Source: Escherichia phage PhiR40_1
Reading direction: 5' to 3' (one strand)
Length of the DNA: 42,251 nucleotides
Sequence record: PV340560.1
Position 1 is the stretch's first letter; the number at the start of each line of letters is the position of its first letter. Both the position numbers and the translations under genes were made by a program. This document shows positions 5,199 to 5,854 of the stretch, piece by piece. The notes under the pieces were generated by a model. It was not told where the DNA came from. It ran no database searches and was given only the letters and a program-made list of their open reading frames with translations.

Positions 5199-5806
5199 TT
5201 TGCTGCTCCTCATCATATCGACCCTGCAAGGTCGGTTGGTTTCTCCACAAAACAGAGAAGAACACCTGCGGTGACTGCCGCCCGGATGGATTGGGTTATG
5301 AGCCCGTCGTCCGGTGATGCTCTTCTCTGTTTTGTAAAAAGAGCGGTACCAGCCGGAAGCAAGTGTACAAACTGGTACCGCCAAAGCAGTGGCTGTTGTG
5401 GTGGGGTTGTCACTCAGGCGTATGGTCAACCTGACAATCCGGTGTCCTCAACGGGGAAAGAGTAACCCCGCCATACTTACCGCCGCGCCATTTCGCGGAT
5501 TACCACAACGCTGAGAGCACTTAGCCAGTTACGGCACCACACTTTGTCGCGGTTCCATAAATGCCCTCATCGTTGCACCCTGGTCTCTTCCCAGGCGTCA
5601 AACCGGATCGCCACGCTGGTTAGGCGTCTTATCAGCATCCTCATTGACTTGCACATTCCGGCTACCTGGTTTGTTTGCCCGAGCAAGGAGTGGATTGTCC
5701 CCTTTAACGTCCCCAGACCGCTAACGACGCATGTGCCATACGCCGTGTTACAACCAAATTTTGTTAGTACCTTGTTTGTAGGTCTGGAGAGAAAGATAAA
5801 ATGAAG

Positions 5807-5844
5807 TTGCGCATTATGCAAGTGTTTTATTGCGAGATAAGCAA
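5807..5844. promoter_or_regulatory. Left operator region: two TTGC-N7-GCAA dyads (5807-5821, 5830-5844)
   Basis: Same 15-bp dyad architecture as 6614-6628 in the cI/cro intergenic region. Confidence 0.45.
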
Positions 5845-5854
5845 TTTGGTGGGT

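Follow-up and report, generated by a model that had tools for sequence, protein, structure and literature searches.

Exchangeable folded RNA units and a DicF-type hairpin in the untranslated early-left leader of a lambdoid prophage

The window considered here is the whole 42,251-nucleotide stretch of Escherichia phage PhiR40_1 (sequence record PV340560.1), a lambdoid prophage of the mEp460/SfV/cdtI type with 100% identity to Escherichia phage PhiR55_1 over the queried stretch, and the element in question is its early-left leader (window 5199–5805, minus strand), which covers about 600 nucleotides (nt) from the putative leftward promoter PL to a yfdP-like gene. Five conserved folded units, each exchangeable on its own, make up this leader as a mosaic in the fixed order C5, C3, B, T and A, and very probably represent conserved non-coding RNA. 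Sequence comparison makes homology between part of the leader and the long untranslated region of dicBF in E. coli very probable. The explanation we favour, with a probability of about 0.55, is a non-coding RNA cassette transcribed from PL that would end at a DicF-type terminator and yield stable RNAs on cleavage, the early-left genes being supplied by read-through.

Part of this was anticipated by a first-pass annotation made from the letters alone, which described the leader as untranslated, structured and transcribed leftward; folding of the minus strand (z = -7.4) and the lack of any Pfam match bear this out. The 15-nt perfect inverted repeat reported there at 5247–5261 and 5321–5335 is present and extends to 25-nt arms (5247–5271 and 5311–5335, 84% complementarity). 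The 10-nt perfect inverted repeat also exists with its first arm at 5343–5352, but its second arm occupies 5372–5381 and had been placed one base too far to the left. What escaped attention is that a conserved three-way junction, unit A, has the 15-base-pair (bp) repeat as its basal stem, and that P1, epsilon15-like phages and K-12 prophages share with the window three more conserved RNA units, which make up the upstream two thirds of the leader. The units and their parts, all on the minus strand, are as follows.

5578–5746: C5, five helices with two proposed pseudoknots
5724–5746: C5, hairpin H1
5666–5723 paired to 5650–5653: C5, helix H2 with variable tip
5648–5665: C5, invariant core GUAGCCGGAAUGUGCAAG
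between the core and H4: C5, variable helix H3
5613–5627: C5, hairpin H4
5578–5596: C5, hairpin H5 with GAAGAGA loop
5513–5577: C3, GCAAC followed by a long stem around a variable insert
5560–5568 / 5513–5521: C3, stem GAGGGCAUU / AGUGCUCUC
5522–5559: C3, variable insert, with a copy of a repeated 14-mer at 5553–5566
5395–5509: B, cloverleaf-like four-way junction with a loop-loop pseudoknot
5502–5509 / 5395–5402: B, closing stem GUUGUGGU / ACCACAAC
5483–5498: B, hairpin CCGCG-AAAUGG-CGCGG
5452–5470: B, middle arm with variable tip
5405–5440: B, 8-bp arm
5471–5476: B, GUAUGG, forming the loop-loop pseudoknot with CCAUAC
5336–5394: linker and T, intrinsic terminator or small-RNA hairpin with U-tract CUUUUUA
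5336–5382: T, with hairpin GGCGGUACCAG...CUGGUACCGCU at 5342–5382
5247–5335: A, 25-bp basal stem closing a three-way junction
5313–5335 / 5247–5266: A, basal stem
5284–5312 and 5268–5283: A, inner hairpins
5199–5246: 3' end of the leader, with invariant GGAGAAACCAAC at 5235–5246 and a small variable hairpin at 5219–5234

Conserved pairing and coding potential

The minus-strand RNA of the leader folds to -247.8 kcal/mol against -204.8 ± 5.8 kcal/mol for shuffled sequences (z = -7.4), the plus strand reaching z = -3.0, and the G+C content is 53–57% in the leader versus 40–48% in its flanks. Comparison across homologues, a check that the first-pass annotation had proposed, shows that the paired arms are kept, and compensatory changes together with G-U pairs are found in C5, C3, B and A in the sense of the minus-strand RNA only. 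For C5, a hand-built structure applied to 25 diverse sequences gave 97.8% of cells paired versus 26–40% with slid partners, compensatory changes occurred in 11 of 32 pairs, a level reached by none of 500 shuffles, and its frequent G-U pairs exist in the minus sense only, the opposite strand having A-C mismatches in their place. Two pseudoknots are proposed for this unit, one joining the H1 loop GCACAU to AUGUGC of the core and the other joining the H4 loop AACC to GGUU (GGUG in variants) at about 5601–5604. The consensus fold of C3, drawn from 21 sequences, shows AU/GC/CG/UA exchanges at four stem positions, and its long stem GAGAGCAUU / AGUGCUCUC contains covarying pairs; the insert that this stem encloses varies from about 40 to about 170 nt across phages and in some of them contains T-arm-like GGTTCGATTCC hairpins. 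In B, 96.3% of cells are paired versus 32–54% with slid partners, six pairs carry compensatory changes, the junction nucleotides are invariant and the closing stem follows the consensus GUUGUGGY / RCCACAAC. Its covariance model (R1) finds a single match in the window (5393–5511, 136.7 bits, E = 1e-32) and also matches K-12 Qin, Salmonella phage F1055, P7 and Citrobacter prophages. Twelve sequences of A show compensatory changes at three stem pairs and share the inner loop GGGCUCAUAACCC; its stem can be extended by pairing of the U-tract of T with the invariant GGAGA at 5242–5246. A closing stem GUUGUA/UGCAAC, considered for C5 in the window, was rejected, as it is not kept in other phages.

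Rfam 15 (4227 families) was searched with the whole window at gathering score and with 3800–6000 and the locus of a related unit, B' (IMG/VR contig L015), at E <= 10. The scan, likewise suggested by the first-pass annotation, gave no match to any family for a unit of the leader, nor for B'. Comparison by eye, with no formal test, disclosed no resemblance to hepatitis delta virus (HDV)-like or hammerhead ribozymes, RNase P, tmRNA or 6S RNA.

The 14-mer TTCCATAAATGCCC, noticed earlier as a recurring string, does occur in two copies (2 matches versus 0.02 expected), at 5553–5566 and 3906–3919 and not at 5543–5556 and 3907–3920. The second copy, said to lie next to a 9-bp hairpin, is in fact part of such a hairpin, AAATGCCCC-GCA-GGGGCATTT (3906–3935), in the gap between the yfdQ-like and yfdR-like genes, and the first is in the variable insert of C3. 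The two copies may share an origin.

Three other readings of the leader are contradicted by the comparative sequence data. That it encodes one or more small proteins on either strand, as annotation in places has it (mEp460_036/037, F1055_0036, ymfH of K-12), is very improbable. Stop-free frames of 84 amino acids (aa) on the minus strand and of 86 and 151 aa on the plus strand do exist, and the 151-aa open reading frame (ORF; 5010–5465) yields the strongest PHROG match (phrog_3651, E = 2e-95). Yet this ORF is antisense to yfdP over its first third and to units A and T, has just 37 aa in common with the annotated ORF of the diverged homologue F1055 and keeps neither its start nor its end nor its frame; phrog_3651 (162 positions, function unknown) probably gathers miscalled ORFs over conserved non-coding DNA. 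Pfam returned no match for any ORF of the leader, the lengths of units across homologues fall into all three classes modulo 3, and substitutions are paired across stems. The earlier statement that no credible protein ORF is present here holds in this respect as well, since none is conserved across diverged homologues. Its companion, the absence of an N-like ORF, stands for the interval between PL and yfdP, the remainder of the operon not having been searched exhaustively. There is similarly little to recommend a role of the units as DNA, i.e. as operator-like, recombination or single-strand initiation sites; it would accord with their mosaic occurrence and mobility between unrelated phages and with the position of C5 in P1 just upstream of the helicase gene ban, but their orientation is fixed relative to transcription and to transfer RNA (tRNA) genes in more than 260 loci, many of the G-U pairs would turn into A-C mismatches if the opposite strand were the one that pairs, and the compensatory changes keep pairing, not sequence. 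The chance of a lambda-type nut site (boxA with boxB) served by an unrecognised N-like protein appears close to negligible. The reading draws on the similarity of CGCUCUUUUUACAA to the boxA consensus, and the boxA-like string that the first-pass annotation placed between the two hairpins is indeed found on the minus strand (CGCTCTTTTTA, about 5336–5346). As a boxA this candidate had to be rejected: CGCUCUUUUUA is the 3' arm and U-tract of the T hairpin, and its CGCUC turns into CGCCC or CGACC in homologues together with the stem partner, so the string is part of a terminator stem and not a conserved boxA. What comes next is a stem of 25 bp and not a boxB-type hairpin of 15 nt.

Unit T and the DicF cassette

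In the alignment, T takes the place of DicF in the cassette. In the fold it is a 13-bp stem that includes the 10-bp perfect repeat, and it is positioned as DicF is, directly downstream of B, as in the K-12 prophage Qin and in the PPompW phage (locus L161), where Rfam places DicF (76.7 bits) immediately after the B match. Alignment of T with the K-12 DicF and with the DicF match of PPompW shows both ends to be common, UUUGGCGGUAYCAGUUU and CCGCYCUUUUUA. B itself shows 89% identity with the sequence that adjoins dicF on its upstream side in Qin and in the PPompW phage. A hairpin with a U-run follows B in 18 of 18 representative copies, its body being hypervariable, and in P7 the element after B is an unrelated classic terminator. 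The idea that the leader might give a processed small RNA of the DicF type is supported for one part of it, the hairpin at 5343–5381, by position and by shared ends.

In Qin (locus L164, 1770–2330, ydfC–dicB), the C3 stem and B were observed upstream of DicF, B being situated between ydfC and dicF, and downstream of it a closed B'-like unit that has a 21-bp helix reaching the start of dicB. The DicF literature speaks only of "a long untranslated region". Published work on Qin assigns the 3' end of DicF to Rho-independent termination and the 5' end to RNase E, while RNase III acts on read-through transcripts to give a form of 72 nt (PMC9438474, PMC5069750); binding of K-12 DicF to Hfq is likewise known from the literature. 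When placed on the K-12 sequence, the +19-nt end of the 72-nt form falls in the 5' strand of the 21-bp helix right after the U-tract, and unit A of the window has a position equal to that of this helix. Unit A is homologous to the 'ymfH' region of e14 (83.5%) and to F1055, and is kept ahead of differing first genes, namely YfdP-like, RdgC-like and xisE (e14). A copy of unit A overlaps the annotated ymfH of K-12 e14 (locus L163, 2501–2813), which is possibly not a real gene.

Distribution, the tRNA slot and the surrounding genes

DNA searches split the leader into pieces with differing distributions: about 190 nt nearest yfdP are found in SfV, SfIV and others, the next 120 nt or so in PPompW phages, and the promoter-proximal stretch of about 250 nt in phiV10/epsilon15-like phages, part of it also in P1, P7 and D6. 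All matches lie in unannotated DNA or under "hypothetical protein" calls, of which ymfH, mEp460_036/037 and phrog_3651 are examples. Of 5426 complete E. coli genomes, 4856 carry some part of the leader and 1158 carry at least 80% of it. The 16-nt core of C5, GUAGCCGGAAUGUGCA, retrieved at least 120 viral contigs. A second C5 anchor, made of the H1 loop and the junction, gave 29 matches in the genome collection, seven of which are chance hits in unrelated metagenome-assembled genomes (MAGs); the 22 true copies belong to 21 named Enterobacterales species and one Bacillota MAG, where the copy is on a 1.7-kb contig, and the 18-nt core is identical in 21 of these 22 elements. In the more than 260 loci fetched, units and nearby tRNA genes all share one strand and follow a fixed order, and the arrangements are these.

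C5 > C3 > B > T > A: 23 loci, window type
C5 > C3 > B' > T > A: 14 loci, mEp460 type
C5 > C3 > tRNA-Arg(UCU) > T: 25 loci, phiV10 type
B > T: 93 loci, the commonest arrangement, Qin type
B > tRNAs > C3 ... > tRNA-Ile(CAU) > C5: several loci, P1 type

In phages of the phiV10 type the cassette is inserted in reverse orientation between the genes for terminase and portal, and since two terminators precede the next ORF it has the look of an independent RNA unit. In P7 and P1 the ban operator under C1 control precedes B, and C5 is situated between trnI and ban. The ban operon of P1-type phages (P7, P1, D6) was seen to interleave B, B', several C3-type motifs and C5 with tRNA genes, and in P7 ARAGORN calls a tRNA-Ser(UGA)-like gene that is unannotated there and annotated only in D6.

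The relation to tRNAs is positional. All tRNAs near the units are on the strand of the units; tRNA-Arg(UCU) starts 2–3 nt before the end of the C3 motif in at least 28 loci, and exactly there the closing stem of B begins. Either tRNA-Arg or tRNA-Ile substitutes for B between C3 and T with both flanks homologous, and in P1-type phages a gap of 14 nt separates the end of tRNA-Ile(CAU) from C5. B' forms a second family of such cargo, built on the frame of B: it comprises a 9-bp closing stem and a hypervariable middle, and the loops of its first and last hairpins pair (GCUGA/UCAGC) and covary in P7 as ACUGA/UCAGU. B and B' can be described jointly as a tRNA-slot class with a long closing stem, a multi-helix junction, a loop-loop pair and the position of a tRNA. 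One B' variant (contig L015, about 3880–3980) adopts a near-cloverleaf fold, in which a 5-bp arm presents the 7-nt loop CUUUUAA, identical to the loop that carries the anticodon in tRNA-Lys(UUU) of E. coli; no tRNA is called there by ARAGORN or Rfam.

Within the literature covered, which leaves out the possibly relevant Faubladier and Bouche 1994, no earlier account of the units came to light, whether next to dicF on its upstream side, within the ban operon of P1 or in leaders of the mEp460/SfV type, and no paper combining DicF, tRNA-like and prophage. A preprint on Pas small RNAs, considered as an earlier description, concerns RNAs of the late region and was set aside.

The genes and sites around the leader are the following.

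5807–5844, minus strand: left operators and putative PL, TTGCATAATGCGCAA and TTGCTTATCTCGCAA in RNA sense
5901–6593, minus strand: cI-like repressor with helix-turn-helix and S24 domains
6691–6951, plus strand: Cro
6944–7495: CII-like gene
4836–5198, minus strand: first early-left gene, YfdP-like, 120 aa (phrog_204, E = 1e-49), a context feature and not part of the RNA

The left operators were correctly located by the first-pass annotation: two operator-like 15-mers are found at 5807–5821 and 5830–5844, with a related copy at the right operator OR (6610–6628), and a -10-like hexamer CATAAT at 5813–5818 lies inside this region, from which PL would start at about 5805. The assignment of the first early-left gene to the ATG at 5198 is likewise upheld, the YfdP-like gene being the first leftward gene with a good Shine-Dalgarno sequence (GAGGAG, 5206–5211); YfdQ-like (DUF2303) and YfdR-like genes come after it in the leftward direction. 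A two-way terminator-like hairpin, AGCCACC-AGAA-GGTGGCT, occupies 5862–5879, in the gap separating the left operators from the end of the repressor gene. F1055 has the repressor type of the window, and directly after PL, in the place of C5, carries a small CxxC...CxxC ORF (3362–3571 of locus L159) which, judged by eye, resembles a ClpX-type zinc finger. On the other side, in the operon of the rightward promoter PR, Rfam finds isrK (7852–7928) and the C4 antisense RNA (7953–8040) on the plus strand, both within a 383-aa ORF (7492–8643) and upstream of its Rha/antirepressor domain, a layout resembling the RNA-controlled antirepressor of the P1 immI type. The Pfam family Phage_ASH matches residues 117–213 of this ORF, i.e. 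the translated isrK–C4 stretch, and the Rha domain begins at residue 223; the ORF has probably been drawn too long, and what Pfam treats as the Ash family may be an RNA gene in translation.

Proposed scheme, alternatives and known systems

By analogy with Qin, the course of events may be pictured as follows, and we give this scheme of termination and processing an even chance. Many transcripts from PL would stop at the hairpin and U-tract of T, giving a non-coding RNA of about 460 nt, from which cuts of the RNase E type would release a small RNA of the DicF family and presumably of the Hfq-dependent type. In read-through transcripts the 25-bp stem of A would form, engulf the U-tract and expose an RNase III site, and cleavage there would part the RNA cassette from the yfdP mRNA. 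T would stop or pass PL transcripts and therefore might also serve as an attenuator limiting expression of early-left genes in a phage without an N gene. From genome context, the enzymes responsible for processing tRNA arrays could liberate C5-C3 and B; these would be stable tRNA-shaped or tRNA-processed RNAs and not mere spacers, because they have long closing stems and B occupies the slot of a real tRNA.

Several points weigh against this explanation. The Rfam model of DicF (RF00039) finds nothing in window 3800–6000 even at E <= 10, T lacks the 5' seed, UUUCUGGUGACG, of the mature 53-nt DicF, and its middle part is unrelated; because of these two differences the targets of DicF are not to be assumed for T and probably differ. 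A crude test of RNAduplex pairing with ftsZ was non-discriminating, true DicF having scored no better than shuffles. ARAGORN calls no tRNA in the window, neither it nor the Rfam tRNA model (E <= 10) recognises B or B', and these two are "tRNA-shaped" by architecture and position alone. Both pseudoknots proposed for C5 are nearly invariant, with one covarying pair in that of H4 and none in that of H1. The alignments were gathered through conserved anchors, and the shuffle controls carry no correction for phylogeny. Termination, processing and RNA stability in this phage are all predictions.

Two cis-acting roles compete with the cassette. In one, which we hold to be unlikely, C5 and/or B are antiterminators similar to the put RNAs of phage HK022, the folded RNA binding polymerase and replacing N. 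The units are promoter-proximal, C5 lying about 60 nt after the presumed PL start in the window and in some viral contigs, it appears, no more than about 15 nt away from a -10-like hexamer, no N-like ORF was found between PL and yfdP, and compact pseudoknotted folds with invariant loops are as expected of an RNA that binds a protein or polymerase. In P7, moreover, B is about 45 nt after the C1-controlled ban operator and directly followed by a strong terminator that must be passed to reach the tRNAs and ban. Against this, comparison of the leader with HK022 27600–31600 (blastn, word size 7), which includes the PL–nun and PR regions, produced chance-level matches (best 13–21 nt, lowest E 0.09). 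The 16-mer of the C5 core and the B model each hit once in the 42-kb window, so that no copy exists on the PR side. The C5 of P1 is at the end of its operon just before the start codon of ban with no terminator left to pass, the phiV10-type unit of C5, C3 and tRNA is self-contained in appearance with its two terminators behind it, and in Qin B is about 1 kb downstream of the promoter. The put-like proposal of the first-pass annotation is accordingly not supported, and its nut-like proposal fails, also for want of a boxB-like hairpin beside the string. In the other role B, perhaps with A, would be a riboswitch-like sensor of a metabolite, tRNA or protein that sets termination at T, which seems quite unlikely. 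A four-way junction with a pseudoknot and invariant junction nucleotides would suit it, and the layout of aptamer plus terminator is kept in the window, Qin and P7 despite unrelated terminator sequences. However, the spacing from B to the terminator ranges from about 10 to about 45 nt and includes unrelated inserts such as the 5' half of DicF, and a search for alternative pairing between the 3' strand of B and the terminator gave none that is conserved. The sole candidate, GGCGGUA of B with the 3' arm of T, shows no covariation in variants with GGUGGCA/UGCCACC arms, and a real tRNA can take the slot of B.

The comparison shows DicF, which is among the oldest small RNAs known, to be one variable slot in a larger conserved RNA cassette. 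The neighbours of this slot (B, C5, A) have pseudoknotted folds and recur in the P1 ban operon and in epsilon15-like phages, and the arrangement suggests how a lambdoid phage without N may gate its early-left operon. A broader proposal is offered tentatively, as we consider it less likely to be right than wrong: C5, B, B' and A would be new phage RNA families, and lambdoid, P1-like and epsilon15-like phages of Enterobacterales would share in their earliest transcripts an exchangeable "string of pearls" of tRNAs and tRNA-shaped RNAs. Were this so, a conserved frame of closing stem and loop-loop pair would display a hypervariable middle arm, as would be expected either if the RNAs served as decoys or competitors for the tRNA-directed nucleases or modification enzymes of the host, or if they were antisense RNAs on a scaffold and determined immunity specificity. 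For work on phage RNA processing, tRNA mimicry and anti-defence, the cassette provides several well-defined RNA families in genetically tractable hosts.

Among known systems, the put RNAs of HK022 are two stem-loops of about 70 nt that act through the zinc-binding domain of the beta' subunit in protein-independent processive antitermination. They resemble the leader in that a lambdoid phage without N carries folded RNA close to where an early operon begins, whereas the units of the window measure 115–170 nt, have junctions and pseudoknots, and occur in one copy with none downstream of PR. The C4 RNA of P1/P7 and the CI RNA of P4 are immunity RNAs cut from an untranslated leader by RNase P; the proposed stable RNAs would be like them in stability, in being closed by an acceptor-like stem and in their excision from an operon leader of a phage, and the window carries a true C4 with isrK in its own PR operon. 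But C5, B and A have no match to the C4 model, and no target repeats complementary to their loops were found. The ROOL and GOLLD RNAs of prophages and species 1 and 2 of the T4 tRNA cluster are elaborate, unexplained RNAs that adjoin or enclose tRNA genes. The Rfam models of ROOL and GOLLD have no match in the window at gathering score or in 3800–6000 at E <= 10, and the units described here are smaller and modular, with Enterobacterales as host range. In sib/tI retroregulation of lambda, read-through of a terminator forms a longer helix that is cut by RNase III; the U-tract of T can similarly pair with GGAGA at the foot of A, but the element of the window is at the 5' and not the 3' end of its operon, and cleavage is only predicted. 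The nearest relative is dicBF of Qin, equally an early, repressor-controlled leftward operon with a long helix directly after the U-tract, to which in K-12 the 72-nt end made by RNase III maps. The two differ in that the cassette of the window is first after PL and preceded by C5-C3, that of Qin following ydfABC, and in that the downstream helix is unit A in the window and a B'-like unit in Qin. As a whole, the leader may be regarded as the untranslated region of a prophage early operon that yields a processed small RNA, and its upstream units may be new RNA families.

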